A stretch of 64,000 bases of DNA, taken from positions 1-64,000 of the forward strand of contig JAUFOR010000008.1 of assembly GCA_040285745.1 (NCBI GenBank), written 5' to 3'. The notes beneath the pieces are model-generated. The model did not search any database. It was not told where the DNA came from and worked only from the letters and a program-made list of their open reading frames with translations. Of the stretch, positions 3,001 through 47,328 are shown piece by piece. The DNA comes from Barthelona sp. PCE. Taxonomy: Eukaryota. The position numbers were made by a program, and so were the translations under genes. Numbering within the stretch: the stretch's first letter is position 1; each line of letters opens with the position of its first letter.

Positions 3001-4097
3001 GAAGCAGTTTTAACAGTGAAACAAAGCATGAATTTGTTTCAAATTTACTGTGGCTTGCTAAACTATGGGCAGCACACCTGATGGAGTCGTAACGATGTTG
3101 AGATCATGGCTTTAATATTGTAAAGGTCAAAAAAAGCAAACTACAAAACATTCACCGTGTTTTTTGTTTTAAGATGCGATCAAACATTGTCGTTTCCATC
3201 CAGAATCATTTATATCCCGAGACGCCTTGATCCTTCCAGCGTTCTTTTTGCCTGGTCACTGATGCTACTGTCGCCATGGCCCCAAAGGTCAGTTGCCAAT
3301 ATTCATTCAATGTTTGATGAGCTACATGTTTGGCGGCGCTTTTGTATTGATATATACCAATTGTTTGTCCCTGAACTTCGAAATGTACGCCTCTGGGCGG
3401 CAACTTTGAGAGAAGGTTTTGGACAGAAGAAGTCATCATTATTCTTGTTCAAAAAATCACGGTCTTGTCGTCAAACTGCACAACAACATTCTTGAGAAAA
3501 CAGTTGATACTGTTCGAAAATCAGGAAACGCTCATATTTTCAACTGATAAATAATTCCTAAAAGAAAGTTTGAGGATTACAGTGACATACATATACATTA
3601 GGTTGGACACACAGTGAAAGCGGTGAGTCGTACCCCAATCGGAAAGAACGTAAGCGACCAGATTTTGCAATACTGGAAGGCGGACCCAAGGTTGTGGTGG
3701 ATGTTACTGACTTTCCCATCGCCGTTCACGAGCAAAGATCGAGGTCACGCAGCCTTATTTAAGCACAGAAGCTAAATAAGTAAAAACTTTGATGACCCGC
3801 CATCAAGATTATGGGCGTTGCACGGGAGAACCATTTTGGGATCGATAGGGGAACCGACGTCGAAGGCACGCGAGAAATACAATTTTCAGGCTAACCACAA
3901 ATCGTGGGAAAATTGCTCGAGCTGTTAGAACGAGAGATCAACGTCGCAATCAATTAAGACCAGTGAAACGAGCTAAAAGGTCTGTCTTATCTATTTGCTT
4001 TTCACGCTTTTTGAAGAACATTATGAGGGCGCGGCAAGGAGCAGGCGCAGAGTCCACAGTTAGCAGAAGCTAGCAAACTACGAGAACTGGACAGCTT
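1..4097 (+). mobile_element. Degenerate or low-quality copy (copy 0) of the CRE-like non-LTR retrotransposon, 5' part outside the window
   Basis: Colinear with 5280-9490. Remnants include YAYADDIYIV (ORF 2016-2309) and WPQRSVANIHSMFDE (ORF 3157-3495). Dense indels throughout. The 3' end is fused into the 711-bp module. Confidence 0.9.
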
Positions 4098-9434: not shown

Positions 9435-9518
9435 TACTAACAGTTAGCAGAAGACCAAGGAACAGTACATACGAGAATCCGGGACAGCTTGCTCGAAAAC
9501 TAATAAACTATTTACTAC
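4597..9518 (+). mobile_element. CRE-clade (RLE-type) non-LTR retrotransposon, copy 1 core (AGGTCCTCTGG ... AATAAACTATTTACTAC)
   Basis: Ends were defined by comparing the six copies. Encodes RT and a C-terminal restriction-like endonuclease. No LTRs. Confidence 0.92.
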
Positions 9519-9786: not shown

Positions 9787-9905
9787 AGCTTACAGCACTT
9801 GGGATTCCCGCGGGCTCTCGCAACGCAGTACTAACCAAGCCCTAACCTGCTTAACCTCAGTGTTCGGGATGAGAACTGGCGTTTCCAGGTTGGTATGGCC
9901 GAAGC
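9787..9905 (-). rRNA. 5S rRNA: 5S rRNA gene
   Basis: The reverse complement GCTTCGGCCATACC...CCGAACACTGAGGTTAAGC...GGTTAGTACT...GGGAATCCCAAGTGCTGTAAGCT fits the eukaryotic 5S consensus. About 119 nt, with paired ends and an oligo-T Pol III terminator. Confidence 0.96.
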
Positions 9906-10009: not shown

Positions 10010-10645
10010 TTATCCTCTATCCTACACCTTGGATGGTTTACTGAAGTGACAGCCTGCATGTTGGGAGGGCAGACAGAACGAACCGTTAGACAGGACGGGT
10101 ACGGATCAATCAAGATACCGCCGCACGCTACGTACCCGTAGAGCCATGATTAGTGGCTAACTGTCTCGCTATTGAGAAAATATGACGAAATTTTTTGTAA
10201 AATTTCTTGATAAAACTTACCTGCGTTCTTTCTGCACTAGGATATAATTTATGCAGAAGATGATGAAAGACTTTCTTGGATAATCCAGCACAGAATGTGT
10301 GCGGAGTAGTTTTTTCCAAGCTCACGGAAAAACAACAAAAAGTTTCGAAGATTATGTCGAAATTTAACTTTCTGGTTTTTTGTCTTTTTTAATTTTTTTG
10401 AATTCAGGAAAGAAATCGAAAAGCAGTTACTCGAGTCCGAGTAACTTAGCTAGGATTATTCTTTAACTCTCACTATCAGTGTATGTCATCTAGGTTTCGG
10501 GTGCATCAAGATTCCGATTGCCATCAACTACATTATCCTCTATCCTACACCTTGGATGGTTTACTGAAGTGACAGCCTGCATGTTGGGAGGGCAGACAGA
10601 ACGAACCGTTAGACAGGACGGGTACGGATCAATCAAGATACCGCC
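10010..10645 (-). repeat. Element A 3' split direct repeats B1-A2-(270 bp)-B2
   Basis: 113-bp repeat 10010-10122 = 10533-10645. 140-bp repeat 10393-10532 = 22974-23113. A2 and B1 abut, as in a circle-junction template. Confidence 0.93.
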
Positions 10646-11802
10646 CATTCTCGTATCTGGTTTATACTGTACAGTTCCCCCGGCATGGCGTACTCCAGGT
10701 CGTGAATATCCAGGTAATACTTATTCATGGTTTCATTGGCGCTCCAGCCCCCAATCTGTCTGGCTGTGTCTTTGTCACCATGAATTTTGATAATATCTTG
10801 GCATCTCCCCGCTCTTATGGCGTGGGGGTTGAATCTCGCTCCAGGCGGTGCACCTATGAGGTTTGGATCGTCAAAGACGGTGTTAAACCTTTTTAGAATT
10901 TTTGCTTCCCGGTCTTTTGCTCCTGTACCTAGGAGTAACGCGGTGCCCTGCCGCTTCGTTTCGAGTGCATGCACAATAAACGGCGCAAATACACTTTCGT
11001 ACCAATATTTTTGGGGAATTGTTGCAAAACGTCCTTTTCGGCTTTTCCCTTGCGTTTTATGCTTTGGGATCATCACTGAGAGGGATTTCTCCATGCTATT
11101 TTCATGAAGAGTGATCTCAAGGTGTCGTTTTTCTATAAAATTCAATTCTCCCGATCTACAACCGAGAATGTAGTGGATCGACAGTATTTGGCAGTCCAGG
11201 ATGCATTGTTCGACCTCCTGTGAGACCATAGCACTTATTTGGTCTCGTGGAGAAAAAATGTCCTCTCGGAGCTTCATGATAGACTCATGGGCGCTCTCTT
11301 GGACGAGGAACAGCAGCCTCTGGACCACAGACGCTCTTATAGCGCATTTATAACTGTATAATTTGGGGATTGCTCCACTTTCATCGGTTATGATCTTTGT
11401 ACGCGCTGAAATGAGGTACTGCCTGTCTTTATCGCAGGCGTCCTCCCAGCAACCGGTTGTAAGCAGTCTAATAACTCTCAGGGAGCTTCTTAGAAGGGAT
11501 CCGTATGTATCAAGAGTGCTACTCTTGTAATACAGGATTAGGGCTGTGTTGCCTTCGGGCGATTCGCCCTTTTCGGCTCTCTCCGCTAGGTCAGCTATGC
11601 ATAAACCTACTAACAGATTGCAGTGGCTTGGATTTTTTATCCAGCCATACATCCTCCTTATTGCATTCTGATTAGCTTCAATGTACTGTCTAAATAGTTT
11701 GAGGGCGGTCCTGGCTGTGCTTAAGGAACCTTTTCTGAAGAACAGCGCCAGGAGATCGTCAATTCTCATTGTATTGGCTGGAAACCTAAAGTGTTTCTTC
11801 AC
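10633..11802 (-). CDS. Tyrosine recombinase of element A
   Basis: Catalytic set R (GCRSGEL), K (KHKT), HxxR (HAIRAG), W (GGW), Y (KYY). The stop codon lies inside the B1 repeat. Confidence 0.93.
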   Translation of the reverse strand: MKKHFRFPANTMRIDDLLALFFRKGSLSTARTALKLFRQYIEANQNAIRRMYGWIKNPSHCNLLVGLCIADLAERAEKGESPEGNTALILYYKSSTLDTYGSLLRSSLRVIRLLTTGCWEDACDKDRQYLISARTKIITDESGAIPKLYSYKCAIRASVVQRLLFLVQESAHESIMKLREDIFSPRDQISAMVSQEVEQCILDCQILSIHYILGCRSGELNFIEKRHLEITLHENSMEKSLSVMIPKHKTQGKSRKGRFATIPQKYWYESVFAPFIVHALETKRQGTALLLGTGAKDREAKILKRFNTVFDDPNLIGAPPGARFNPHAIRAGRCQDIIKIHGDKDTARQIGGWSANETMNKYYLDIHDLEYAMPGELYSINQIREWAVS

Positions 11803-14800
11803 TATGAGGGGGGACGTCTATCTTCACGAAGTCAGTGTCGCCCTTCCACAAGCTTCCTGCTTGTACAGCCTTTGATTTGACAGGGAAAATTTTTTCCGGG
11901 TTGATGGTAATTTCGCACATTTCTTTCCATGGACGAACGAACTGCGATACCATACCCCACACGGGTGCAGATGGGAGAGGTTGTGGTAACTTCACTCTGA
12001 TAGTAACACCGGTCCTGAGGGCCGCTAGTAAAATAATTTCTAACGCCGCTGCTGCTGACTGGGCAGGGACCATCTGTTCGACTGTGTGGCTCTCTCTTCC
12101 GATCATATCTATCTCAAACTTCGGTTTAGAGCGGGGGACTGTGTATCTTATATCTTCCAGTCCCTCAACCACTGGTGTTGTATCAATTTTGTCTTCTTTC
12201 AGTTTTAAGAAGGGTGCCGTTAACTTGGGCAGTCCCTGTCGTCTCGATACGGGCATAAAAGCTAAATCGCTTTTAAATGTTTTTCGAAACAAGTTCATTG
12301 CCCGGATGCAGCCAACTGAGCGGCCGCTCTTGTCCTGTTTTGCTCTCGCTATGAGGGGGCTGGTATGGCCCGGCTCATAAGCGCTTGGGACGACAGAATT
12401 TAGAATTATAATCTCCTTTGGGGGAACGAGCTCTTGAAGGAATGTTCCCCTCGATTGTTTCCAGCAGACTGGCTCTCCACGTGAGGCCATGTCCGGAAGG
12501 TGATTAAGTACAGAGGGAACGTAAATCGCTTCCACAACAAGGTCCTTCTCTTGGCAGAATCTTGCCAAGGTCCGGGCAGCATCGTTGAGGACGGTATTGC
12601 GCGACGTTAGTTTGTTCGTCGCAGCTACCACATTAGTGTTATCGCAATACCAGACGAGATATCCATTGGATAGTTTGGACCCGAGGCTGTGCAGCATAGC
12701 CATCAGGGGTTCCATCTCCGCATGAGCGATCGACAGTTTTGTTTTCTGGATCGCTTTCGCTTTATCTTTTGCTGACAGCATGTTCAGCAAGTCGATGAGT
12801 TCATTCTTGGCAAGATCATTGCCGCCTACACTGCGAAGTAGCAGGTGCTCAAAACAGGTTTCGTCAACATCATCCGTTGCGAAAGCTGTGCCTGCGATAC
12901 CTATTTTCTCTTCACTTACAGCAGCGTCACTTATTAGGACCCACTTTTTTCTGGTGGAAAGAAGGGGTTGTGGTGGAAAATCGTGATCGGCTAAACTCGC
13001 AAGGGTACAAGCGAGGTGGTGTGCCTCGTTTGTACCGATGAATCCAAGTGGAGACCCGCTGGTAGGGTCTGTTGCCTTTGGCTGGGCCTCGATCTGGCCG
13101 TGTTCATGATGCTGGACCTCCTTCAGGTCTTGGTCGCCGATCGTGAGCGATCTCGTCATGAGCCACTTGGTTATTTTTCTAGGAATGCCATCTTTATCCT
13201 TTAGTGCTTCGTGTATGATGGCATTGATCGTAATGGCGGAGGCATGTAGCTTTCTGCTAGCCGCCCTAAACGCCGTGCACTTCGATGCAAGTTCTACGAA
13301 GTCTTTCAACGGGATTTCCTTGCATGATGTGAGCTTATGGGCCAGTTCTTGAGCCTTCAGCGCGATCTTACGGCAATTAGCATCACTTGGTGCTAATGCC
13401 ACTTTCATATTTGGATCGTCCGGCGATCCAAAGGTAGATGTGATGGTGAAACCTATCACATCTAATTTCTTACATGGTTCGACAGATTTTTTCTTGTTGA
13501 TAGTGATATCCAACCAGAAACAGATTAGCTTGAGCAGACGCATGGCGTCGCTAGCACTACGGTATCTGCCTCTTCGATCTGGGGATTGCCATCCGAAAAC
13601 ATCGTCTATGTAGGCCCATAGTTGGTAACCTAGAGCACGCATAGGTGCTAGGGCTAGGTTCATCAACGCTGAGAATATAGCGGGGCCAAACGTGACTCCG
13701 AAGCACAACTTTGTGCACCGGTAAAAGCCGCCGTTGAGGGAAAATGTAAAGAACTTTTGAAAGTCTTCCGCAATGGGGATGAGATGGAAGCCGTTGGATG
13801 CATCGATGGAGAACAAATCATCGTTCGGGTTTACCAGGTTAAATAACCGCACCTTGGGCAGTTCCATTGGGAACATGTTAAACATGTCGTTAATCGGGGT
13901 GCAATCAGTGATAATTCTTATATCACTTATTGAGACATCTTCGAAGCACTCCTCAATGTCTTCTCGACCGGCCCAGTCTTGGCTGAGGGCATCAATGGCC
14001 GATTGTTCGATGCCTTTGGGCACCACACCGATTTTAATAAAAGCTGTTTTTACGCCAACAGGGAGTTTCGACATTTCCGACACTGGGTCATGATCCAGCT
14101 TAACAAAGGCGTCGCTTTTTTCTATCTTTTCCTGTACTAGGAGGGAGATGCGTGATCCATCCTCAAACCAGTTTTCTTGTGGACCGTTAAACGGTTCTTT
14201 ACGGATTTGAGAAACGTTTTGATTGCTCATGACGTGATGGGCGCTTACTCCGTGCGTCAACATTGATTGAAGGTTGGTGGAATGGCCAACACTCAAGCCT
14301 GCGATTTTTGCCAAAATATCGATGCGTTGACGGGTTCGACGAGGCGCATATGGGCTCGTCTGTATCGTATGCTCCATGAATTCCTCTGCCTTGTCTAGAT
14401 CTATTTCTAGCTCCCGTATTTTTAGGCCGGGGATAGCGTCCATGAGAGACGCTGGCGGAGCTGGCTCAGCCCAACCAGATAGGTTGGGGGCCTGTATACC
14501 TACCGTCTCACTCGCTCTACGCTGGGGTTCCTCAATGCTGGCTGAGATTGGCCTGGCATTTTTCTGTACCGCAACGTTAAAGGCGGTTTTGAACCCCTCA
14601 GCACTCAGAGTAGGTTCTACTGGACCTACAACTGGGGAGACGCGAGGTTTTGATGGTGGTGGTGGAGGTGGCAACCCCTGAACAGGTTCTGGTGCGATAG
14701 TGTGGGATTTTAGGGCTGTGACGCGCGCTATGTCCATGTATAGGTCCCTATCGCGGATGGCAGCCGCTAAATCTGCCTTAAGTTTGGGGATAATGGCGCT

Positions 14801-14971
14801 TTTTTGTGCTTCAGCTTTACGCTTTCTGCGCTTTTGATCCTCCAAAAGATCTCGGATTTCGAGAAGGGTATCGTCGTGTGGGTCCAACGGCACCTCACAG
14901 TGCTGTGGCGACTCGACGCGGGTGGAAAGCCTCTCAACTGGGTTAGATTTACAAGCGAGAGACTCGTCATC
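11786..14971 (-). CDS. Pol of element A: reverse transcriptase + RNase H + degenerate C-terminal domain (frame open from the gag stop)
   Basis: RT: RIITDC, IDASNGFHLI, LCFGV, YIDD, INKKKS, VIGF. RNase H: ISDAA, HAEM, YCDN, NHLPDMASR. Confidence 0.93.
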   Translation of the reverse strand, partial: DDESLACKSNPVERLSTRVESPQHCEVPLDPHDDTLLEIRDLLEDQKRRKRKAEAQKSAIIPKLKADLAAAIRDRDLYMDIARVTALKSHTIAPEPVQGLPPPPPPSKPRVSPVVGPVEPTLSAEGFKTAFNVAVQKNARPISASIEEPQRRASETVGIQAPNLSGWAEPAPPASLMDAIPGLKIRELEIDLDKAEEFMEHTIQTSPYAPRRTRQRIDILAKIAGLSVGHSTNLQSMLTHGVSAHHVMSNQNVSQIRKEPFNGPQENWFEDGSRISLLVQEKIEKSDAFVKLDHDPVSEMSKLPVGVKTAFIKIGVVPKGIEQSAIDALSQDWAGREDIEECFEDVSISDIRIITDCTPINDMFNMFPMELPKVRLFNLVNPNDDLFSIDASNGFHLIPIAEDFQKFFTFSLNGGFYRCTKLCFGVTFGPAIFSALMNLALAPMRALGYQLWAYIDDVFGWQSPDRRGRYRSASDAMRLLKLICFWLDITINKKKSVEPCKKLDVIGFTITSTFGSPDDPNMKVALAPSDANCRKIALKAQELAHKLTSCKEIPLKDFVELASKCTAFRAASRKLHASAITINAIIHEALKDKDGIPRKITKWLMTRSLTIGDQDLKEVQHHEHGQIEAQPKATDPTSGSPLGFIGTNEAHHLACTLASLADHDFPPQPLLSTRKKWVLISDAAVSEEKIGIAGTAFATDDVDETCFEHLLLRSVGGNDLAKNELIDLLNMLSAKDKAKAIQKTKLSIAHAEMEPLMAMLHSLGSKLSNGYLVWYCDNTNVVAATNKLTSRNTVLNDAARTLARFCQEKDLVVEAIYVPSVLNHLPDMASRGEPVCWKQSRGTFLQELVPPKEIIILNSVVPSAYEPGHTSPLIARAKQDKSGRSVGCIRAMNLFRKTFKSDLAFMPVSRRQGLPKLTAPFLKLKEDKIDTTPVVEGLEDIRYTVPRSKPKFEIDMIGRESHTVEQMVPAQSAAAALEIILLAALRTGVTIRVKLPQPLPSAPVWGMVSQFVRPWKEMCEITINPEKIFPVKSKAVQAGSLWKGDTDFVKIDVPPHSEETL

Positions 14972-15252
14972 TCACTTTCTCCTGCTTCGCCGCGGTCTCC
15001 TAGGTTGCTTATACTTGGAGACGCCCTTGGGGGACAACGCGTCAATGAACAGCGTCGGGCGGCCGGGGAGGTGTCTTACGAGGAAATTTATCTCATTCAC
15101 ACAACTTGCAATAGCTGAGGCGTCGGTTTCCGAGATTCTTTCCAAGGCCTTCATGTAATCAGAGTTTCTATGGCCGATCCAGAGGCTGATGGCGGTGAGC
15201 ATGACGGGGCGAGTTTCCTCCGAGACTTCGTCGCTGCCTATGACTGCCATCA
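14972..15252 (-). CDS. 3' part of the element A gag-like ORF1
   Basis: Joins in frame to 21864-22143 when element B is removed (HCILDL-MAVIGS). Basic C-terminus KQPRRPRRSRRK. Confidence 0.85.
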
Positions 15253-15387
15253 TCTTGTTGCCCCTGGCTGTCTGTTGATGTCTACTGAGAGTAAAGAAGA
15301 CGAGAAAGAGGTGGAAAACGTAGATTTACGTTTCTTCCCTCTTTTGAGACTTATTATTTTATTTATTTTAAGGAATCGATACGAAAG

Positions 15388-16413
15388 ATGTACGATTTTA
15401 GTGGAGATGGACGTGCAGTGGCAAGATTTCTGCACGAGACGATATTGGAAAATTCAAATGAAAAAGATTTCATTGTGCGTGCTTTACGCATGTTTTCGAT
15501 TAAATACAGGAGGACTACCGATAGTGTCCTTAAGGAACATATTGAGGATGTCCTACTCAAGCTCCTTCCACTCTGTTTGAAAGCTCCTGCATGCTCTAAG
15601 AAGATTGGAGAGTTGGTGGCTAAAGATGATGTTAAGCAACAAAGTGGTAGGGAGGACAAAGTAGTGTCGGAAGTATTTGTAACTGAATTTTTCGATTCTT
15701 TAAAGGAGAATTGTGCTGACCAGGATGTCGGTACTGCTACGTCCTTTAAAGCCGTTGCTGAGACGATTGATATGCTACGGTTTACGTTCCCCTATGAAGA
15801 TCCAAAGGGTGAAGAACATGAGAGGACTATTGTTATTGAGAACCATAAATCGGAGGCCGAACATATTGAAACGTTAGGGAGTTTCTTCTCATTATCGCTG
15901 GATAAGGAGACTTTGCCGCCGATTGGAGAGATTCAAAAGTGCGTCGAGAGCTTAGGTGCTATGAATCCTATTAGGATGGCTTGGGATGGTAAATCTGTAC
16001 GAGATCTTGCTGCCAAGAAGTTGGTGTCATTTGATGACAAGATCAACAAGCATCTGAATAGGATTACGACGTTTAATGGATATATCGCAGATATTATGGC
16101 TGATGTGTTGAAGAATGATTATTTCGATGATAACGATCAGCTTATAAGTTTCATGAAGATGATGTTGTGCCCGAAGACATGGGTCACCATTTTTGCGCAG
16201 GAGGCTATTTATCACCCTGAGCGAATCGAGGGTAGGGCTCAAGAGGCTGCTAACCAGATGGCTTGGGATTTCTTTAAGTCAATTCGGGAGAAAGCTGGCA
16301 TTTTTGAGGAAGAATTTGTTAGCAAACCGAGGGTTAATAACAAACCTCGTTCGAATGTTGTCCATAAGACCTCATCTACTAAGACTTCATCTAAGTCTAA
16401 AGGTGGTAAATGA
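15388..16413 (+). CDS. gag-like ORF1 of element B (341 aa)
   Basis: First ORF after A1, with a basic C-terminus. Assigned by position; no CCHC knuckle seen. Confidence 0.8.
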   Translation: MYDFSGDGRAVARFLHETILENSNEKDFIVRALRMFSIKYRRTTDSVLKEHIEDVLLKLLPLCLKAPACSKKIGELVAKDDVKQQSGREDKVVSEVFVTEFFDSLKENCADQDVGTATSFKAVAETIDMLRFTFPYEDPKGEEHERTIVIENHKSEAEHIETLGSFFSLSLDKETLPPIGEIQKCVESLGAMNPIRMAWDGKSVRDLAAKKLVSFDDKINKHLNRITTFNGYIADIMADVLKNDYFDDNDQLISFMKMMLCPKTWVTIFAQEAIYHPERIEGRAQEAANQMAWDFFKSIREKAGIFEEEFVSKPRVNNKPRSNVVHKTSSTKTSSKSKGGK

Positions 16414-19400
16414 GGAACGGCCAGTGGTTCGTCTGGTTCGTGTAGTAAATCAGCGAAATCACAAGGCCTTAAATTTAAACCCCCTGATATTAAATCTAAC
16501 CCCCCTGAGCCGCAGAGCTCTAACGTCCCCTGTGCTGCTTGTACTGATAGGGTTGCTAGGATGGAAAGACAAATCCTGAAGAACAAAATGGACGTTGAAT
16601 TTATTAGTAACTCGTTGTGTGAAGCTTCATTGAAGTTATGCGATGATTCAATGGCGTGCCATGCCCTCCATGACCCTGGTGGTTGTGTTGAGAAGGAAAA
16701 GAAGCCCTCAGTTGCAGTGCAGAAGGATCTTAAAAAATCCGTGATTTTGCACGATAATAAGAAATTGATTGGCCAGAGACCCTTGTTCATTGCTCCTGAC
16801 ATTGCTAATAGTGATTGTAATGCTAGAACTCGCGGCACAGATAATTTTTCTAAGGTTCTCCTTAAAGGTTGTTCGTGCGATGATGATATTGCTCCTCCCG
16901 TGCGTAAACCGATTGGCAAACCCAATTGTGCTGGTAAGATTGCGAAGCCTCTTGTTGCTAAGAAGATTGTAGAAAAGCCCGTTAAAAAGGCTGTGATACC
17001 GTCCACGCCGGATAAAGAAGCGAAACCTGTGAAAAACCCGATACCGAAACCTGTTCCAAAGAAGGTTAAGAAGAAAAAGCCGAAATTGAAAGAAAGAAAG
17101 CATAAAGTGCCGTTATCGAAGTTTCCAGCTATTGAAGAGAGCAAGGTATTGAAGAAGCTTGATAAGATGGAGAAGACTGTCGATAAACTAACGAAAGCAA
17201 TTACCGGCAAGAAAGAACCCCATCTCGTTACGGTTAAGGATCCTTCCATTATGAAAGATCCTCCTATCATTGAGAAGGACACTTCTCCCCCTGATGACAG
17301 TGACTCCCAACTGTTTGTTAAGGATGACAGTGGCTTATTGTCTTTAGACCCGAAGACTGAGGCGTTTGATGATGAATTGGCTAGAATCAATGATATGAGT
17401 AAGACGTTACCTGCTACTATGAAGAGACCATCTGCTGCAGTACTGGGTACGAAGGAAAAACGTCAATATTTTGATGATGAAAACGTGCTGCTCTTAGATA
17501 GTAGCCCTGATGACTTGTTTACCTTACCGTTTCACTCAAAATTCTGGAGATTGATATTGAAACTATATATTCGTCAATCACATGACGGTTTCGTCGCTGA
17601 CCTGACAGAACGAGGAAGAGAGGTATACCGCGCCTATAGGGGCGGTCCCGATCAGGATTTGCATGTCCCGTTTCCGAGACCCGGCCCAGGAGCTGCTCCT
17701 GGTTGTGCTCTTAATTTCCAAAGTCAGTTAGCTTACTTGACTGTCGTAATGGGTGGAAAATTTTCTCCTTCAATGACATTTGCTATGGAAATTTTGAAAC
17801 CTCTGGATGATCACCGTTCGTTCTTTAAGTATCCGGAACAAGCTAAAATTCTTGAGCTCTTTGCGAAACGTGCTGGTGTTTATTCCTCAAAAACGTTTGA
17901 CAGGTTACTGTTGAAGAATACTGAGGATTTCTTGGACATGGATAAGCTTCCTGCTTTGAAAACGAAAGCTCAGGAGATACTCAGTGACATTGACAACTAT
18001 GATGACAACTGGATCGATGACGACCGTGTTGCTGAGGTAAAAGAGAAATTGCTGGCGGACATGGTTAAAGTTGATCCCAGCGATTACCATAAGATAAATG
18101 CTATTAACAGGATTGGCTCAGTTAAGAAAGGTGTTGACGGAGTGCGTCAGATATTTGACTCTTCTGCTGCCGGCGGTGTTCATGAGGTAAGCAAACACTT
18201 TATTTTTTCCCCATTCAAGATTGATGAACTTGCATTGATCCCAAGGGGTTCTTACCTTGCTAGTATCGACCTTAGCTCTAGTTTCCTGCACTTTGATATG
18301 TCTAAGAACATGGATATCGCTAATTGTATGGCTTGTATTATTGATGGTGAAGTTTATGTGGCTGATCGTGCACCATTTGGTGCCGTGATTAGTAACAACC
18401 TCTTATGTACGTTGACTGGATTGTTAACTGCAATAATGAACAACTTTGATTTTCCTTTTGTTAGTTATGTCGATGATACTCTTGCTTTTGGTACTGAATC
18501 GCAGGTCACACGTGCTATTCAGACATACACAACGATTTGCAAACTGATTGGTCTGAAAGTTAATGACGAAAAATCAGTTACATCCCCAGCTGCTTCGGTT
18601 GATTTCTTAGGCTTTACTATCAAGTCAAACCCCGAGAACCGCGACGATCACATCAAGATTCGCCTATGCGAGAAGAGAAAGTTGAAAATGATTGAAGAAT
18701 GCAAAACGACTTTCTACACACTCTTCGGTTCTACTAAGGTTGCTGGAGGCTTCATTGTCAATGAGAATGTTACGCCTTTCGTTGAAGACCCTGACTCCCT
18801 GGAGAAGGAAGAGCTAGAATCGACCCTTGGTGATGATGTTGTATTGAAAGACGACGATGGTAAGTATATTGTGCCATCCTTATATGACATACAACGTCTT
18901 ATAGGGTTATTTGAATCTGCTGAAATATTGTCAACATTGTACACGATGGTGGCATCTCAACTCCGCGAACTTGTGCGAGATAACGTAAGATTCCACAAGA
19001 AGATCGGCGTGGATAGCAAAGTACCTGTGTTAACTGCTGAGGAAATGAAGAGATTACATGTTAAAGTACACAAATTTAGTATACTGAATGCAATCGCACA
19101 CGTCTTTGATTCTGAGTTATACCATAATGATTTCAAGGAGACTCGCATACGTTCGATGGACTTTACTACGTTTTCGGATGCTAGATTGAATGACTCAGTT
19201 GAAGGATACTCGGCTTTAATTTTTGATATGCATACTCTTGAGTGTAAGGGAATGTTCGCTGAGAGTGATGTGAAACCTGGCGATATGCATAGGAACGTTA
19301 AGGCTGAGACTGACAGCTATACGATCGCTGCTGCAGAGCTAAATCCGATTCTAAGAATGATTTCACTTAAAGCAGAACAATTGAGTAATTGCGGTGTTCG

Positions 19401-21549
19401 TGTTGTAACTGATAACACTGTAGTTGCATACAACTTGAGATCCTTGATGGCCCCAAGGAAGGGTGCACCTCCTGAGCTGAAGGCTGCCCTTATGGACTTA
19501 TTCGAAATTTGTTATTCTAATAATATTACTATCCGTGTTGCGTACATACAGAGCGGCAAGAACTTGGTTGCTGATTACTTGTCACGCGGAATTACAGTTA
19601 ATTATGATGAATTTATAAGTTTAGTTGGAAAGATGGATATACCTACTCTTATTCTAATTGAAAAAGGTATTCCTCCAACCTTTTCGTCACCGTTGTTGTT
19701 TGATGGTTTACCTGTCGCTGATGGTGTGTCAACCAAGGGTCTATCTAAGCGCCATAAACAGATGATGATGGCCGAGATCCAGTATGGTTACAAATTTTCT
19801 GATATCGGTCCTTACCGAGGTGTTCCTGGCGAGGGCACCAAGCAGGCCTTTATGCAGAATGAACTCGCTGGTTGTATGAAGGATGTGTACTTAACTAAGG
19901 ATGAGATCCAATTACAGATCACGGCTGGGAATCCGGTCATTTCAAAAATTGATATTTTCAATTCTTTCTTAGAGTACTCACAATTTACTGTATCGTACCG
20001 CAAGGAAGGAGAAGCACGTAGTACTTCTGATGATATTACCGTGAACCACATGTCTGTCCACGACGTGATTACACATGCTTGTTTTTCGGCTACTAGATAT
20101 AACAGTGTAATTAAGATCAGGTTCTCTGAACCCTGCCCATTTTCAGCTGCTTGGGCATTACATGAGGTGCGAATGATTGAATCTGATGGTGTCCAGAAGT
20201 TTGAGATGACGATCGATCCTGAATTTTCGGTTCATGCGTCGTCGAAGAGTACTGACCTTGGGTACTCAGGGGTTCCTACTAACCAGAGAGTTGTACGTAA
20301 GGAACTGATTCCTACTAAGAAGATTCTCCCCCCATTTAGTATTTCGAAATTTGAAGAATATGTCGACCAATTTTATCCCCCATCAAGAGCGAAAAGGATG
20401 GCCTCGAGAATTAAACTGTTTATCAAGTGGGTAATTGCCCGCTACAAGCTACCTAACGCAGTTATTGCGAGGAGATACTTGACAATCCACTATATTACCA
20501 AATTTATACATGCTAAATACCTTCAGTTGAAGAATGTAACATTACGCAATGGCAAAACGAAGCAGTTTACGATGGTAAAACAGAGTACAGTTTTAACTTA
20601 CATCACTTCTCTGAAAGAAGCTGTTGTGGTGTATTTACACTTGTTCTGGGGAAAGGAATTAGAGTATGACCATGCATGTAAGCTGTTAATGAACTGTACA
20701 AAGAATTTTTATAAGAAACATGAAGAGCCCCCTACTGGCATGCGTATTGCCTGTGGAAAGACTACTGTTTTGGTTACTGCTAACGAGCTTGTTAAACAGT
20801 TGTTAATGGAACTTGATGATGAGGATGATGCTATTGATAGGTGTGCCCGCTGTCAATATTATATTGTCGTGCTGGGTATCATGGGCATACTGTTTAACTT
20901 TGCTGCCCGACCTAGCGACCTTAAGTATATTGCAAGAGGTAGTATAAGGTGTGATATTAACAATCCTACCGTTTCGTACCGTAAGACTAAGACTACTAAT
21001 CCTGGAAGGAAGGATGTTACCCTAATTGGCAACCTTTCTAATGATATGGTCCTTAAAAAGTGGATTAAGGCGATGTGTGACTTAATCAACGATACTAGCG
21101 ATTCGGACCTGCTATTTGGAGAAGATGCGTCAGTTATATTATGTGATCGTTATGTTGCAACGGTGAATGAAGCTCTTCAAACGATAAAAGATCATTTAGG
21201 TATTTTATATGATCAGTACATCGAAGATGGTGCTGATAGTATGGGACTAGCTCCAGATAAAGCTCTGGTTGATGCACACAGCTTTAGAGCTGGCCGTACC
21301 GTCGAATGGCTAAATTCAGGAATTGATACCAATGAGCTGGTTAAATGTGGCCTTTGGGCTTCATCGGTATCTCCTGAGGAACACTACAATGTTCCATGGT
21401 TGCTAGAACCGCCCAATGCTGAGTTTACGAGTGAAATAGAAGAAGAAACGAATACCCTACTTGAGTCCATTATGGATGGGTGTAGGTACGAGGTACCTGC
21501 GTCCTCAGTAGGCTCGTCTTCTTCTGAATCCCACTCTGAAACTCAGTAA
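16414..21549 (+). CDS. RT-RNase H-tyrosine recombinase polyprotein of element B (first ATG 16561, 1662 aa; frame open from the gag TGA)
   Basis: RT: RQIFD, IDLSSSFLH, APFG, YVDD, VNDEKS, FLGF. RNase H: FSDA, AAEL, VTDN, NLVADYLSR. YR: AARPSDL, KTKT, HSFRAG, GLW, EHY. Confidence 0.95.
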   Translation, partial: GTASGSSGSCSKSAKSQGLKFKPPDIKSNPPEPQSSNVPCAACTDRVARMERQILKNKMDVEFISNSLCEASLKLCDDSMACHALHDPGGCVEKEKKPSVAVQKDLKKSVILHDNKKLIGQRPLFIAPDIANSDCNARTRGTDNFSKVLLKGCSCDDDIAPPVRKPIGKPNCAGKIAKPLVAKKIVEKPVKKAVIPSTPDKEAKPVKNPIPKPVPKKVKKKKPKLKERKHKVPLSKFPAIEESKVLKKLDKMEKTVDKLTKAITGKKEPHLVTVKDPSIMKDPPIIEKDTSPPDDSDSQLFVKDDSGLLSLDPKTEAFDDELARINDMSKTLPATMKRPSAAVLGTKEKRQYFDDENVLLLDSSPDDLFTLPFHSKFWRLILKLYIRQSHDGFVADLTERGREVYRAYRGGPDQDLHVPFPRPGPGAAPGCALNFQSQLAYLTVVMGGKFSPSMTFAMEILKPLDDHRSFFKYPEQAKILELFAKRAGVYSSKTFDRLLLKNTEDFLDMDKLPALKTKAQEILSDIDNYDDNWIDDDRVAEVKEKLLADMVKVDPSDYHKINAINRIGSVKKGVDGVRQIFDSSAAGGVHEVSKHFIFSPFKIDELALIPRGSYLASIDLSSSFLHFDMSKNMDIANCMACIIDGEVYVADRAPFGAVISNNLLCTLTGLLTAIMNNFDFPFVSYVDDTLAFGTESQVTRAIQTYTTICKLIGLKVNDEKSVTSPAASVDFLGFTIKSNPENRDDHIKIRLCEKRKLKMIEECKTTFYTLFGSTKVAGGFIVNENVTPFVEDPDSLEKEELESTLGDDVVLKDDDGKYIVPSLYDIQRLIGLFESAEILSTLYTMVASQLRELVRDNVRFHKKIGVDSKVPVLTAEEMKRLHVKVHKFSILNAIAHVFDSELYHNDFKETRIRSMDFTTFSDARLNDSVEGYSALIFDMHTLECKGMFAESDVKPGDMHRNVKAETDSYTIAAAELNPILRMISLKAEQLSNCGVRVVTDNTVVAYNLRSLMAPRKGAPPELKAALMDLFEICYSNNITIRVAYIQSGKNLVADYLSRGITVNYDEFISLVGKMDIPTLILIEKGIPPTFSSPLLFDGLPVADGVSTKGLSKRHKQMMMAEIQYGYKFSDIGPYRGVPGEGTKQAFMQNELAGCMKDVYLTKDEIQLQITAGNPVISKIDIFNSFLEYSQFTVSYRKEGEARSTSDDITVNHMSVHDVITHACFSATRYNSVIKIRFSEPCPFSAAWALHEVRMIESDGVQKFEMTIDPEFSVHASSKSTDLGYSGVPTNQRVVRKELIPTKKILPPFSISKFEEYVDQFYPPSRAKRMASRIKLFIKWVIARYKLPNAVIARRYLTIHYITKFIHAKYLQLKNVTLRNGKTKQFTMVKQSTVLTYITSLKEAVVVYLHLFWGKELEYDHACKLLMNCTKNFYKKHEEPPTGMRIACGKTTVLVTANELVKQLLMELDDEDDAIDRCARCQYYIVVLGIMGILFNFAARPSDLKYIARGSIRCDINNPTVSYRKTKTTNPGRKDVTLIGNLSNDMVLKKWIKAMCDLINDTSDSDLLFGEDASVILCDRYVATVNEALQTIKDHLGILYDQYIEDGADSMGLAPDKALVDAHSFRAGRTVEWLNSGIDTNELVKCGLWASSVSPEEHYNVPWLLEPPNAEFTSEIEEETNTLLESIMDGCRYEVPASSVGSSSSESHSETQ

Positions 21550-21863
21550 ACACACTAGCAAGTTTTACTCCTTTGATAGAGTAACATGCACTCGAAGTAA
21601 GAATCATCTTGTTGCCCCTGGCTGTCTGTTGATGTCTACTGAGAGTAAAGAAGACGAGAAAGAGGTGGAAAACGTAGATTTACGTTTCTTCCCTCTTTTG
21701 AGACTTATTATTTTATTTATTTTTAAACTATTGTGGGTGTAGGTACGAGGTACCTGCGTCCTCAGTAGGCTCGTCTTCTTCTGAATCCCACTCTGAAACT
21801 CAGTAAACACACTAGCAAGTTTTACTCCTTTGATAGAGTAACATGCACTCGAAGTAAGAATCA
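21477..21863 (+). repeat. Element B 3' split direct repeats B1-A2-B2
   Basis: The 130-bp B repeat occurs twice, flanking a ~123-bp copy of the 5' A repeat. Confidence 0.95.
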
Positions 21864-22855
21864 AGTCTAGGATACAGTGGAGGAATGCCACTGGGACTGC
21901 AGTTTTTTGACGACTAGCGTGGTATTGTCTTCTCTTCCAAGAATTTTCAGGGTTGCCGAGGCAAGTGAAGCTCTCGTTTATAATTCTATACCACCGGGAG
22001 CTATCGTTGGAGACATTGTTTTCTTCTAAAACGGGCAGGATTCCTGGGAAGAGGCCTCCGTTGTTGTAGTTGAGGGTTCTGGTGGCGCCGAACGTGGTTT
22101 TGAGGATTTCAATCAGGTTATCCCAGCCTGGCTCTGGGGCCAAGCTTGGGCTCTTCCGTCATCCGAGCCATGAAGCCTTTTATCCTTCCCCATGGCCTCA
22201 GGGTCAAATGGGCGGGCGAACGCATTCATGGATGGGTCTGTACCCCCTTGTGGAACCACAAAGTTGGGGGCCATTTGCTCCATCAGCGCCTCCTCGACAT
22301 ACCGGGATATGTCGCCCGAATTCCCCCTGAATGTATCGATAATCTCGTCCCGCATTGCCACGATGTTACTCATGGCAGGGGCTTGAGGACCGCCTCAAAC
22401 GCGGCCTCATCGAAGTCGCTGGTCGCCTGGAGCTTCGCACGGGCACCCTGTGCAAATTTCCTGACACGGTCATGCAGAGGATACACAAGCTTAAAAAGCA
22501 TGTCCCAGGCATTTTGTGCGACTCCTGAACTCGACCTCCTAAGGTCGGATGTTGCCTTTCTTATTTCGGCCGCGGTGGCCTCCGCGGTGGGCATGCCCAT
22601 GAAGAGAAGAAGTAACGCGTACTTCTCCCTTTCACCGTCCTCGCTGCTGCCTCTGTCCCACACCGCAGTGGGGATGGGCTCGTTATGGTTTAGCAGCGGG
22701 ATCTCATCTACAATGTGCACCAATGATGCCAAGAGGACGGGTAGTACACTCTTGCACAGGTGGGACACTTTCTTGAGCTTCCAGAGCTCTGGACTATCCT
22801 TGAGGCTATACATGGCCTCAAAGACCATCTCTGCCATGTCCACGACCCTCCTCAC
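21864..22855 (-). CDS. 5' part of the element A gag-like ORF1 (fragments 22370-22855, 22113-22373 and 21864-22143; breaks fall at G/C runs)
   Basis: The second copy bridges the breaks (FEAVLKPPPMSNIVAM; EEPKLGPEPGWD). First ATG is at 22837. Confidence 0.8.
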
Positions 22856-22973
22856 GGGCTCCTTGTAGTTTGTTTTTAAATTTCTAAAACTTAAACATTC
22901 TATTCCCTCATTTTACATAACTCGACATTGAACAAAGGATTTAAATCTCAATATATATCAATCTTTGACGGGT

Positions 22974-23113
22974 TTTTTTTGAATTCAGGAAAGAAATCGA
23001 AAAGCAGTTACTCGAGTCCGAGTAACTTAGCTAGGATTATTCTTTAACTCTCACTATCAGTGTATGTCATCTAGGTTTCGGGTGCATCAAGATTCCGATT
23101 GCCATCAACTACA
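22974..23113 (-). repeat. Element A 5' repeat A1
   Basis: Identical to 10393-10532. Confidence 0.93.
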
Positions 23114-23122
23114 AGCAGTAAC

Positions 23123-33979: not shown

Positions 33980-34097
33980 AGCTTACAGCACTTGGGATTC
34001 CGCGGGCTCTCGCAACGCAGTACTAACCAAGCCCTAACCTGCTTAACCTCAGTGTTCGGGATGAGAACTGGCGTTTCCAGGTTGGTATGGCCGAAGC
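33980..34097 (-). rRNA. 5S rRNA: 5S rRNA gene, second copy
   Basis: Matches 9787-9905 except for a 1-nt homopolymer deletion. Confidence 0.93.
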
Positions 34098-37100: not shown

Positions 37101-40100
37101 TCTTCACTTACAGCAGCGTCTTATTAGGACCCACTTTTTTTCTGGTGGAAAGAAGGGGTTGTGGTGGAAAATCGTGATCAGCTAAACTCGCAGGAGGTAC
37201 AAGCAGGGTGGTGTGCCTCGTTTGTACCGATGAATCAGTGGAGACCCGCTGGTAGGGTCTGTTGCCTTTGGCTGGGCCTCGATCTGGCCGTGTTCATGAT
37301 GCTGGACCTCCTTCAGGTCTTGGTCGCCGATCGTGAGCGATCTCGTCATGAACCACTTGGTTATTTTTCTAGGAATGCCATCTTTATCCTTTAGTGCTTC
37401 GTGTATGATGGCATTGATCGTAATGGCGGAGCATGTGGCTTTCTGCTAGCCGCCCCCCTAAACGCCGTGCACTTCGATGCAAGTTCTACAAGTCTTTTCA
37501 GCAGGATTTCCTTGCATGATGTGAGCTTATGGGCCAGTTCTTGAGCCTTCAGCGCGATCTTACGGCAATTAGCATCGCGGTGCTAATGCCACTTTCATAT
37601 TTGGATCGTCCGGCGATCCAAGGTAGATGATGGTGAAACCTATCACATCTAATTTCTTACATGGTTCGACAGATTTTTTCTTGTTGATAGTGATATCAGC
37701 CAGAAACAGATTAAGCGAGCAGACGCATGGCGTCGCTAGCACTACAGTATCTGCCTCTTCGATCTGGGGATTGCCATCCGAAAACATCGTCTATGTAGGC
37801 CCATAGTTGGTAACCTAGAGCACGCATAGGTGCTAGGGGCTGGGTTCATCAACGCTGAGATATAGCAGGGCCAAACGTGACTCGAAGCACAACTTTGTGC
37901 ACCGGTAAAAAAGCCGCCGTTGAGGGAAAATGTAAAGAACTTTTGAAAGTCTTCCGCAATGGGGATGAGATGGAAACCGTTGGATGCATCGATGGAGAAC
38001 AAATCATCGTTCAGGTTTACCAGGTTAAATAACCGCACCTTGGGCAGTTCCATTGGGAACATGTTAAACATGTCGTTAATCGGGTGCAATCAGTGATAAT
38101 TCTTATATCACTTATTGAGACATCTTCGAAACACTCCTCAATGTCTTCTCGACCGGCCCAGTCTTGGCTGAGGCATCAATGGCCGATTGTTCGTGCCTTT
38201 GGGCACCACACCGATTTTAATAAAGCTGTTTTTTACGCCAACAGGGAGTTTCGACATTTCCGACACTGGGTCATGATCCAGCTTAACAAAGGCGTCGCTT
38301 TTTTCTATCTTTTCCTGTACTAGGAGGAGATGCGTGATCCATCCTCAAACCAGTTTTCTTGTGGACCGTTAAACGGTTCTTTACAGATTTGAAAAACGTT
38401 TTTGATTGCTCATGACGTGATGGGCGCTTACTCCGTGCGTCAACATTGATTGAAGGTTGGTGGAATGGCCAACACTCAAGCCTGCGATTTTTTTGCCAAA
38501 ATATCGATGCGTTGACAGTTCGACGAGGAGCGCATATGGGCTCGTCTGTATCGTATGCTCCATGAATTCCTCTGCCTTGTCTAGATCTATTTCTAGCTCC
38601 CGTATTTTTAGGCCGGGGATAGCGTCCATGAGAGACGCTGGCGGAGCTAGCTCAGCCCAACCAGATAGGTTGGGGCCTGTATACCTACCGTCTCTCGCTC
38701 TACGCTGGGGTTCCTCAATGCTGGCTGAGATTGGCCTGGCATTTTTCTGTACCGCAACGTTAAAGGCGGTTTTGAACCCCTCAGCACTCAGAGTAGGTTC
38801 TACTGGACCTACAACTGGGGAGACGAGGGTTTTGATGGTGGTGGTGGAGGTGGCAACCCCTGAACAGGTTCTGGTGCGATAGTGTGGGATTTTTTGGGGC
38901 TGTGACGCGCTATGTCCATGTATGGGTCCCTATCGCGGATGGCAGCCGCTAAATCTGCCTTAAGTTTGGGGATAATGGCGCTTTTTTTTGCTTCAGCTTT
39001 GCGCTTTCTGCGCTTTTGATCCTCAAAAGATCTCGGATTTCGAGAAGGGTATCGTCGTGTGGGTCCAACGGCACCTCACAGTGCTGTGGCGACTCGACGC
39101 GGGTGGGAAAACCTCTCAACTGGGTTAGATTTACAAGCAGAGAGACTCGTCATCTCACTTTCTCCTGCTTCGCCGCGGTCTCCCTGGGTTGCTTATACTT
39201 GGGAGACGCCCATGGGGACAACGCGTCAATGAACAGCGTCGGGCGGCCGGGAGGTGTCTTACGAGGGAAATTTATCTCATTCACACAACTTGCAATAGCT
39301 GAGGCGTCGGTTTCGAGATTCTTTCCAAGGCCTTCATGTAATCAGAGTTTCTATGGCCGATCCAGAGGCTGATGGCGGTGAGCATGACGGGGGCGAGTTT
39401 CCTCCGAGACTTCGTCGCTGCCTATGACTGCCATCATCTTGTTACGCCCCCTGGCTGTCTGTTGATGTCTACTGAGAGTAAAGAAGACGAGAAAGAGGTG
39501 GAAAACGTAGATTTACGTTTCTTCCCTCTTTTGAGACTTATTATTTTATTTATTTTAAGGAATCGATGCAGAAAGATGTGCGATTTTTGGTGGAGATGGA
39601 CGTGCAGTGGCAAGATTTCTGCACGAGACGATATTGGAAAATTCAAATGAAAAAGATTTCATTGTGCGTGCTTTACGCATGTTTTCGATTAAATACAGGA
39701 GGACTACCGATAGTGTCCTTAAGGAACATATTGAGGATGTCCTACTCAAGCTCCTTCCACTCTGTTTGAAAGCTCCTGCATGCTCTAAGAAGATTGGAGA
39801 GTTGGTGGCTAAAGATGATGTTAAGCAACAAAGTGGTAGGGAGGACAAAGTAGTGTCGGAAGTATTTGTAACTGAATTTTTTCGATTCTTTAAAGGAGAA
39901 TTGTGCTGACCAGGATGTCAGTACTGCTACGTCCTTTAAAGCCGTTGCTGAGACGATTGATATGCTACGGTTTACGTTCCCCTATGAAGATCCAAAGGGT
40001 GAAGAACATGAGAGGACTATTGTTATTGAGAACCATAAATCAGGAGGCCGAACATATTGAAACGTTGGGGAGTTTCTTCTCATTATCGCTGGATAAGGAG

Positions 40101-43100
40101 ACTTTGCCGCCGATTGGAGAGATTCAAAGTGCGTCGAGAGCTTAGGTGCTATGAATCCTATTAGGATGGCTTGGGATGGTAAATCTGTACGAGATCTTGC
40201 TGCCAAGAAGTTGGTGTCATTTGATGACAAGATCAACAAGCATCTGAATAGGATTACGACGTTTAATGGATATATCGCAGATATTAATATGGCTGATGTG
40301 TTGAAGAATGATTATTTCGATGATAACGATCAGCTTATAAGTTTCATGAAGATGATGTTGTGCCCGAAGACATGGGTCACCATTTTTTTGCGCAGGAGGC
40401 TATTTATCACCCTGAGCGAATCGAGGGTAGGGGCTCAAGAGGCTGCTAACCAGATGGCTTGGGATTTCTTTAAGTCAATTCGGGAGAAAGCTGGCATTTT
40501 GGGGAAGAATTTGTTAGCAAACCGAGGGTTAATAACAAACCTCGTTCGAATGTTGTCCATAAGACCTCATCTACTAAGACTTCATCTAAGTCTAAAAGGT
40601 GGTAAATGAGGAACGGCCAGTGGTTCGTCTGGTTCGTGTAGTAAATCAGCGAAATCACAAGGCCTTAAATTTAAACCCCTGATATTAAATCTAACCCCCC
40701 CTGAGCCGCAGAGCTCTAACGTCCCCTATTGCTGCTTGTACTGATAGGGTTGCTAGGATGGAAAGACAAATCCTGAAGAACAAAATGGACGTTGAATTTA
40801 TTAGTAACTCGTTGTGTGAAGCTTCATTTGAAGTTATGCGATGATTCAATGGCGTACCATGCCCTCCATGACCCTGGTGGTTGTGTTGAGGAAGGAAAAG
40901 AAGCCCTCAGTTGCAGTGCAGAAGGATCTTAAAAAATCCGTGATTTTGCACGATAATAAGAAATTGATTGGCCAGAGACCCTTGTTCATTGCTCTGACAT
41001 TGCTAATAGTGATTGTAATGCTAGAACTCGCGGCACAGATAATTTTTCTAAGGTTCTCCTTAAAGGTTGTTCGTGCGATGATGATATTGCTCCTCCCGTG
41101 CGTAAACCGATTGGCAAACCCAATTGTGCTGGTAAGATTGCGAAGCCTCTTGTTGCTAAGAAGATTGTAGAAAAGCCCGTTAAAAAGGCTGTGATACCGT
41201 CCACGCCGGATAAAGAAGCGAAACCTGTGAAAAACCCGATACCGAAACCTGTTCCAAAGAAGGTTAAGAAGAAAAAGCCGAAATTGAAAGAAAGAAAGCA
41301 TAAAAGTGCCGTTATCGAAGTTTCCAGCTATTGAAGAGAGCAAGGTATTGAAGAAGCTTGATAAGATGGAAGACTGTCGATAAACTAACGAAAGCAATTA
41401 CCGGCAAGAAAGAACCCCATCTCGTTACGGTTAAGGATCCTTCCATTATGAAAGATCCTCCTATCATTGAGAAGGACACTTCTCCCCTGATGACAGTGAC
41501 TCCCAACTGTTTGTTAAGGATGACAGTGGCTTATTGTCTTTAGACCCGAAGACTGAGGCGTTTGATGATGAATTGGCTAGAATCAATGATATGAGTAAGA
41601 CGTTACCTGCTACTATGAAGAGACCATCTGCTGCAGTACTGGGTACGAAGGAAAAACGTCAATATTTTGATGATGAAAACGTGCTGCTCTTAGATAGTAG
41701 CCCTGATGACTTGTTTACCTTACCGTTTCACTCAAAATTCTGGAGATTGATATTGAAACTATATATTCGTCAATCACATGACGGTTTCGTCGCTGACCTG
41801 ACAGAACGAGGAAGAGAGGTATACCGCGCCTATAGGGGCGGTCCCGATCAGGATTTGCATGTCCCGTTTCCGAGACCCGGCCCAGGAGCTGCTCCTGGTT
41901 GTGCTCTTAATTTCCAAAGTCAGTTAGCTTACTTGACTGTCGTAATGGGTGGAAAATTTTCTCCTTCAATGACATTTGCTATGGAAATTTTGAAACCTCT
42001 GGATGATCACCGTTCGTTCTTTAAGTATCCGGAACAAGCTAAAATTCTTGAGCTCTTTTGCGAAACGTGCTGGTGTTTATTCCTCAAAAACGTTTGACAG
42101 GTTACTGTTGAAGAATACTGAGGATTTCTTGGACATGGATAAGCTTCCTGCTTTGAAAACGAAAGCTCAGGAGATACTCAGTGACATTGACAACTATGAT
42201 GACAACTGGATCGATGACGACCGTGTTGCTGAGGTAAAAAGAAATTGCTGGCGGACATGGTTAAAGTTGATCCCAGCGATTACCATAAGATAAATGCTAT
42301 TAACAGGATTGGCTCAGTTAAGAGAAAGGTGTTGACGGGTGCGTCAGATATTTGACTCTTCTGCTGCCGGCGGTGTTCATGAGGTAAAGCAAACACTTTA
42401 TTTTTTCCCCATTCAAGATTGATGAACTTGCATTGATCCCAAGGGGTTCTTACCTTGCTAGTATCGACCTTAGCTCTAGTTTCCTGCACTTTGATATGTC
42501 TAAGAACATGGATATCGCTAATTGTATGGCTTGTATTATTGATGGTGAAGTTTATGTGGCTGATCGTGCACCATTTGGTGCCGTGATTAATAACAACCTC
42601 TTATGTACGTTGACTGGATTGTTAACTGCAATAATGAACAACTTTGATTTTTCCTTTTTGTTAGTTATGTCGATGATACTCTTGCTTTTTGGTACTGAAT
42701 CGCAGGTCACGTGCTATTCAGACATACACAACGATTTGCAAACTGATTGGTCTGAAAGTTAATGACGAAAAAATCAGTTACATCCCCAGCTGCTTCGGTT
42801 GATTTCTTAGGCTTTACTATCAAGTCAAACCCCGAGAACCGCGACGATCACATCAAGATTCGCCTATGCGAGAAGAGAAAGTTGAAAATGATTGAAGAAT
42901 GCAAAACGACTTTCTACACACTCTTCGGTTCTACTAAGGTTGCTGGAGGCTTCATTGTCAATGAGAATGTTACGCCTTTCGTTGAAGACCCTGACTCCCT
43001 GGAGAAGGAAGAGCTAGAATCGACCCTTGGTGATGATGTTGTATTGAAAGACGACGATGGTAAGTATATTGTGCCATCCTTATATGACATACAACGTCTT

Positions 43101-47319: not shown

Positions 47320-47328
47320 AGCAGTAAC

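Follow-up and report, generated by a model that had tools for sequence, protein, structure and literature searches.

Five families of tyrosine-recombinase retrotransposons in the genome of Barthelona sp. PCE (G000) carry gag and pol in one frame with a TGA codon between them, and this gag-TGA-pol junction is a real conserved feature. Considering the sequence around the stop, we think it probable (roughly 0.6) that early polyadenylation gives rise to a gag-only mRNA, while full-length RNA would yield a Gag-Pol-recombinase protein by UGA read-through. If this is true, Gag:Pol control in these elements joins early polyadenylation of gag RNA and stop-codon read-through, which are known separately.

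Elements A and B and conservation of the gag-TGA-pol junction

The window, that is, the whole 64-kb stretch of DNA that was analysed, contains two such elements, A and B, with the following features.

10010..23113, minus strand: element A as a whole (tyrosine-recombinase retrotransposon, split direct repeats), with element B inserted in it (self-BLAST repeats, junctions)
22974..23113, minus strand: element A, repeat A1 at the 5' end, of the same sequence as A2 (10393-10532; self-BLAST)
21864..22928, minus strand: element A, 5' part of gag, frame broken by single-base indels relative to the C6 copy
14975..15248, minus strand: element A, 3' part of gag with a basic tail (K or R at 10 of the last 20 residues)
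14972..14974, minus strand: element A, in-frame TGA between gag and pol (direct read of the junction)
11786..14971, minus strand: element A, pol, reverse transcriptase and RNase H-like region (RVT_1 E 2.4e-11, conserved acidic residues aligned)
10633..11817, minus strand: element A, putative tyrosine recombinase, in its own frame in the window (Phage_integrase E 0.0064, below cut-off)
10010..10645, minus strand: element A, 3' repeats B1 10645-10533, A2 10532-10393 and B2 10122-10010, with AGTAAA in each B repeat
15249..21863, plus strand: element B, an ATCA-core insertion within the gag of element A (repeats, junctions)
15249-15369, 21477-21606, 21603-21723 and 21734-21863, plus strand: element B, repeats A1, B1, A2 and B2, respectively
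15388..16410, plus strand: element B, gag, 341 codons counted from the first ATG
16411..16413, plus strand: element B, in-frame TGA (AAA TGA GGA)
16414..21549, plus strand: element B, pol, with reverse transcriptase, RNase H-like region and putative recombinase in a single 1711-codon frame
39155..39157, minus strand: TGA of element A, duplicated copy, TGTAAA at +20
40607..40609, plus strand: TGA of element B, duplicated copy, AGTAAA at +31

The minus strand at 14980-14966 reads AGA AAG TGA GAT GAC, followed by GAG, just as a preliminary description of this DNA had reported, with the TGA at 14974-14972. The pol frame is open from 14971 to 11786 (1061 codons) and its first ATG is codon 79, confirming the reported lack of a pol ATG for about 79 codons past the stop. 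The open codons described upstream of the TGA are indeed in the pol frame, but since element B sits inside the gag of element A, they are the 3' end of gag alone. An uninterrupted copy of element A on G000:C6 (L013), which both halves of the window element match at 99.6%, has a 451-codon gag frame that ends in the same TGA; the 5' part of the window gag differs from it by five one-base gaps and no mismatches. The pol frame of the C6 copy is broken once, and its RNase H and recombinase regions are continuous in a 785-codon RH-YR frame.

The TGA at 39155-39157, cited earlier as kept in a second copy, is present. However, 4095-27569 and 28290-51782 are one duplication (98.2% identical, 304 gap positions in self-BLAST), and since the second copy of this 23.5-kb stretch differs mainly by single-base gaps, it is not an independent witness; it is possibly an unpolished assembly duplicate. 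Its element A pol frame meets a stop at codon 8 after small indels.

The plan of split direct repeats, A1-ORFs-B1-A2-B2, is found in elements A and B of the window, in families C, D and E and in the C6 copy of A. In Pfam searches, RVT_1 scored above cut-off in all five families and no RNase H model matched; the invariant residues D682, E752, D777 and D827 fit the RNase H pattern by eye. Phage_integrase matched only in family A, below cut-off (E 0.0064 and 0.021), and the recombinase H-x-x-R motif is aligned in families B-E and also present in A. Based on these motifs and sub-threshold matches, the RNase H and recombinase assignments are putative. None of the five pol frames gave a match to Dam (adenine methyltransferase), which the outside hit P0057 does give, and no inverted repeats of at least 80 nt occur in the window, the termini being direct repeats and not of a DIRS1-like plan. 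By repeat plan, gene order (gag, RT/RNase H, recombinase) and the absence of a methyltransferase, the elements fit the Ngaro type as described in PMC8547959 and PMC3783388, which, like all papers below, are cited from the available portions of their text. According to the same portions, the Ngaro recombinase may be in frame with RT-RH.

Our survey of G000 by DNA and protein searches, whose family and copy counts are lower bounds, distinguished families A to E. Four degraded relatives accompany A, and C is represented by five insertions; single-protein searches revealed no sixth family. The pol proteins share 18-41% identity among families (18-33% to A, ~41% between D and E), and the Gag proteins hardly align. 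The junctions read as follows.

Family A: AAG TGA GAT (AGG TGA GAT in a truncated relative)
Family B: AAA TGA GGA
Family C: AAG TGA AAT
Family D: AAT TGA AAA
Family E: AAC TGA AAA

The conserved unit is thus TGA plus a purine, with G or A next, and the Lys-TGA-G unit proposed earlier from A and B is absent from C, D and E. The suggestion that the stop is conserved and no nonsense mutation, for which a genome-wide check of stop and frame had been recommended, held up well: TGA is present in 16/16 junction copies, and gag-TGA-pol is in frame in 5/5 families. By comparison, when 100 host ORFs with 300 or more codons were taken from 336 kb, 22 had TGA as their stop; this is a sample of uncurated ORFs from loci chosen mostly around tRNA genes.

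The first in-frame pol ATG is codon 79, 50, 65, 51 and 332 in families A-E, respectively. The 572 codons between the stops and these ATGs contain no stop in the pol frame, versus 15 and 64 in the other two frames, and in family E a run of 331 pol codons without ATG or stop is crossed by 12 out-of-frame ATGs. This pattern indicates entry into pol at the TGA or close by. Beyond the TGA, the frame is broken in the degraded A relatives, in copy 2 of the window and, by single-base indels, in some C copies. The five C insertions have different flanks, are 99.4-99.5% identical and all carry the TGA, and most pol differences are synonymous (15/17 and 13/17 in the two pairs tested), pointing to purifying selection on family C pol in copies that carry the stop. 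Stop-bearing elements have therefore moved recently, with pol kept under selection. A quick reverse transcriptase tree of 58 rows combined our five sequences with 53 unnamed outside proteins: P0002, P0003 and 51 taken from 150 listed profile hits. In it, a single branch (support 85) sets our families apart together, and the branches are long. One old origin kept for a long time is probably the explanation, rather than five independent origins.

A candidate poly(A) signal and a predicted hairpin after the stop

Past the stop, a hexamer resembling a poly(A) signal and a predicted hairpin were located in both window elements. The preliminary description had overlooked this hexamer, which alters the likely mechanism.

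14948..14953, minus strand: TGTAAA, host-type poly(A) signal candidate, +19 after the element A gag stop, mostly in the hairpin loop
14927..14965, minus strand: predicted hairpin of family A, starting 6 nt past the TGA (z -0.3; rank p 0.59 among 70 pol windows)
16444-16449, plus strand: AGTAAA of element B, +31, inside the hairpin
16419..16468, plus strand: predicted hairpin after the element B TGA (z -3.1; rank p 0.036 among 83 windows)

AGTAAA or TGTAAA (WGTAAA) stands at +19, +31, +28, +36 and +33 past the TGA in families A-E, respectively. The next WGTAAA on the sense strand occurs only in the 3' repeats, 4.2-5.1 kb further on, although base composition would predict 3.6-6.8 per element; family A has one extra TGTAAA at the very start of the gag frame (-1332). 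The junction hexamer is kept in 15/16 copies, being lost only in the truncated C4 relic, and it falls in two different reading frames and is therefore not a peptide motif. Within the first 45 nt past the stop, the five families have a single 5-mer in common, GTAAA; windows drawn at random from pol shared any 5-mer in 104 of 200,000 draws (1295 of 200,000 with four families), a comparison made post hoc, the hexamer having been noticed after inspecting the data.

In the host, WGTAAA occurs 11 times in sense versus 216 times in antisense orientation within 206,115 nt of 131 ORFs. It lies near the stop in 41 of 130 ORFs, further out in 8 of 130, and in the coding window in none of 130. Among 2822 hexamers compared with codon shuffles, the most depleted in host coding DNA were AGTAAA (2 seen, 53 expected), AATAAA (5 seen, 92 expected) and TGTAAA (9 seen, 56 expected). 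Since they are depleted in coding DNA and clustered at gene ends, AATAAA, AGTAAA and TGTAAA are likely poly(A) signals of the host. We also observed that the host hexamer often overlaps the stop codon (15 of the 41 cases at -4; L024-L060), and that AGTGAA is not depleted in host ORFs, unlike in Giardia lamblia. Barthelona is a metamonad, so that a comparison with the poly(A) signals of Giardia is reasonable. There, WGURAA is the poly(A) signal and has been purged from ORFs (PMC9014877, PMC11529991). We infer that RNA would be cleaved at the junction hexamer as well.

All five junctions are predicted to fold into a hairpin with its base ~5-12 nt past the stop and the hexamer in or beside the loop. 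Ranked among pol windows, the hairpins of B (p 0.036) and C (p 0.029) are significant singly, in contrast to those of A (0.59), D (0.17) and E (0.47), and the combined p of the five families is 0.03. The helix common to D and E shows one double-sided and three one-sided changes among nine pairs, as judged from two sequences only. Sliding-window folding gave equally strong hairpins elsewhere near some junctions; structure by itself is therefore weak evidence, and the predicted hairpin lends the junction signal modest support.

In the mechanism that we propose, the Gag:Pol ratio would be set by a two-part junction consisting of UGA plus a purine and then a poly(A)-like hexamer in a hairpin. Many transcripts would be cut and polyadenylated at the proximal signal, giving a gag-only mRNA with a short, host-like 3' UTR, and transcripts that escape would extend to the copy of this signal in the 3' B repeat, acting both as genome and as pol mRNA. 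On this long RNA, a near-cognate tRNA would let some ribosomes insert an amino acid at UGA, producing Gag-Pol-recombinase. The near-cognate tRNAs for UGA are those for Trp, Cys or Arg. Speaking against the mechanism, the base after the stop varies between G and A and is not known to match any classic read-through motif. In Giardia, cleavage occurs 13-15 nt past the poly(A) signal (PMC9014877). Cleavage at that distance would fall within the hairpin, in its 3' arm, and the candidate read-through stimulator would then survive on the long RNA alone. Judging from the junctions, read-through appears to be the likeliest route to Pol.

A wider version of this mechanism is tentative, and we consider it rather doubtful. 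It holds that UGA would be reliable only near a poly(A) tail, that the choice of poly(A) site would serve the retrotransposons as a switch, and that the host would sense UGA leakiness through a second eRF1 with UGA at codon 32, altogether an early form of context-dependent stop decoding. One and the same UGA would end Gag on the short mRNA and be decoded as sense on the long one, cleavage would destroy the stimulating hairpin, and the eRF1 paralog would be a case of read-through autoregulation in a release factor of a cellular eukaryote. The five deeply diverged junctions form a natural set for asking whether termination at UGA depends on how far away the poly(A) tail is, a question that the Candida albicans element Tca2 also raises and that is central to the origin of ambiguous genetic codes. 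The analysis also points to the likely poly(A) signals of the host, and to a second eRF1 gene interrupted by UGA.

Other routes to Pol and the genetic code of the host

Splicing might remove the stop and the proximal signal from a pol mRNA, with unspliced, early-polyadenylated RNA giving Gag. Every family has in-frame GT..AG candidates (4-11 each), the junction spells GTGAG in A and GTGAA in C at the stop, the host seems to have short introns, in public gene models of C, E and A the two genes are fused over the stop, gag with pol, and plant Copia couples splicing with early termination (PMC5580714). However, donor, acceptor and intron length are not common to the families, and no GT stands at the stop in B, D and E. 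The best host intron candidates, from a search that itself demanded AT-richness and a branch motif, are 41-46 nt long and AT-rich with GTAT...CTAAY...YAG, and the junction candidates are unlike them. Moreover, the public models look like gene-finder patches: their introns differ, D is unfused, and model P0001 in addition jumps over a frameshift and takes its start from another frame further upstream. We therefore consider splicing unlikely. The reading of the TGA itself as part of a GTGAG splice donor was rejected, being true in family A only.

Production of Pol as a separate protein is an improbable alternative too. An internal promoter, re-initiation or a non-AUG start past the stop would be used, and the open frame would encode a long N-terminal extension. 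The Tca2 junction does hold a minor promoter (PMC2194720), and a separately ending gag mRNA would suit two transcription units. Against this, the first in-frame ATGs given above lie mostly behind out-of-frame ATGs, and the common frame and stop identity in five families, with no spacer, would be left unexplained.

The hexamer could also act without being cleaved, its GUAAA loop forming part of a stimulator or a protein-binding site, so that read-through alone would govern Pol. It lies in or beside the hairpin loop, where the cleavage machinery might ignore a folded signal, and 3' structures stimulate UGA read-through in alphaviruses (PMC3159437). This is hardly probable, given that the hexamer is purged from host ORFs, placed at host gene ends and used in the 3' repeat of each element.

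Recoding of UGA, as selenocysteine, by a change of the host code or by A-to-I editing to a Trp codon, is very improbable. The stop is always UGA and a stem-loop follows, a gene for SelD (selenophosphate synthetase) is present (L061, G000:C3:547599-548432), and one host gene, the eRF1 paralog, has an in-frame TGA. However, no tRNA-Sec was found in G000 (53 of 554 candidates scored), nor were SepSecS and SelA in partial searches of an assembly that may be incomplete; no UCA anticodon occurs among the 56 tRNAs of an incomplete list, and the anticodon stem of tRNA-Trp has 5 bp. None of the 22 TGA-ended host ORFs continues for at least 100 codons, and in this sample TGA behaves as an ordinary stop. 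Selenocysteine and general TGA reassignment are thus unsupported. As a side observation, tRNA-Trp(CCA) at L040:5154-5225 has a weak D-stem by eye, with U11-A24 and an A-A mismatch; U11-A24 is reminiscent of tRNA-Trp forms that read UGA.

Finally, a nonsense mutation or an assembly error can be practically dismissed: copies in the assembly do differ by many single-base indels, but this stop recurs at the matching position in five families and on five contigs, and selection acts on pol in stop-bearing copies.

G000 has two eRF1 genes. The second one (L060:640-1944, minus strand; G000:C3 about 1020474-1021778) is interrupted at codon 32 by an in-frame TGA, which lies past the conserved first helix but before the GTS loop, and the next Met follows 95 codons on. 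The other 402 codons are intact, with the GTS, YxC and GGQ motifs present; in the NIKS region the paralog has KIRS and the other eRF1 (L058) AIKS. In public model P0005, the GTS loop is left out and the stop thereby avoided; P0005 and P0001 are 96-100% identical to G000 proteins. This TGA may reflect autoregulation as in giant-virus release factors, or else a single lesion or error in what is one sequence. Among host sequences, candidates for short introns (41-46 nt, donor GTAT, CTAAY near the acceptor) were noted at L048:6002-6044, L051, L050 and L057. A search for U6 gave no match, and its controls were equally silent.

Known systems, outside relatives and genomic surroundings

Tca2 is a Ty1/copia element with a DDE integrase, and gammaretroviruses make gag-pol by read-through of an in-frame stop. 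Tca2 resembles the present elements in having gag-UGA-pol in one frame and a predicted 3' structure, and its Pol is made from gag-UGA-pol RNA by an unexplained bypass, its junction having shown no read-through in a yeast reporter (PMC2194720). It differs in being an LTR element, and the available portions of that paper mention no proximal poly(A) signal. For Ngaro elements, the ORFs described are separate or overlapping, and an in-frame gag-UGA-pol with an internal poly(A) signal was not encountered in the available text. Gammaretroviruses and alphaviruses likewise have an in-frame stop before the polymerase, and their 3' RNA structure compares with the hairpin predicted here (PMC3159437 for alphaviruses); there, one RNA gives both products, whereas here a second, short mRNA is predicted.

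The shGAG RNA of plant Ty1/Copia elements such as EVD is a short, early-terminated Gag RNA that leads to an excess of structural protein (PMC5580714). There, splicing makes the short form, whereas here a genomic stop precedes the signal, no intron is common to the families, and Pol needs a bypass of the stop. In ciliates with context-dependent stops, closeness to the mRNA 3' end may decide termination (PMC4967479); that system is genome-wide, in contrast to the host ORFs here, which have no general internal TGA. The class-I release factor of Mimivirus and Megavirus is an eRF1-like gene with an internal stop, like the paralog described above, but it is viral, and the available text states that such autoregulation is absent in eukaryotic and archaeal homologs (PMC3521657).

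No outside relative was found among 55 candidates from viral contigs. Metagenome contigs yielded four loci from 136 candidates, with 21-26% identity and overlapping frames in three, and none of the four has this junction. A profile search gave five strong matches, all models of our own families, after which the best outside match drops to E 4e-42, the reverse transcriptases here lying far from all outside matches. Thus, viral contigs, metagenome contigs and the profile search revealed no junction-bearing relatives outside the public protein records of this genome. The literature search, with supplements, most subscription papers and Repbase outside its scope, found neither a combination of early polyadenylation and read-through for tyrosine-recombinase retrotransposons nor anything on Barthelona retrotransposons. 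Ngaro structure, gag-pol read-through, 3' stimulators, short gag RNA and 3'-end-dependent stops are each known singly, and what would be new is their combination.

Several features of the surroundings were also noted. Insertions are nested: element B lies within the gag of A, and one C copy (L018 2097-8181) within the 3' repeat of a degraded A relative. The window further holds a tandem array of non-LTR retrotransposons (4027-9518, 23114-28049, 28049-33711, 47320-51782 and 52399-58063), with a reverse transcriptase match and, by eye, a C-terminal zinc-knuckle/restriction-like endonuclease motif; a divergent copy (86%) lies at 13-4054. Four stand-alone C copies have no 5S rRNA or tRNA gene within ~10 kb. 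Copies of families A, D and E adjoin such genes, ~100-200 nt off where the element end was mapped, at the following places.

Window 9787-9905 and 33980-34097; L010/L047, L011, L012, L013, L018, L020 and L021: 5S rRNA or tRNA genes and element copies close together

This proximity suggests targeting of RNA polymerase III genes.
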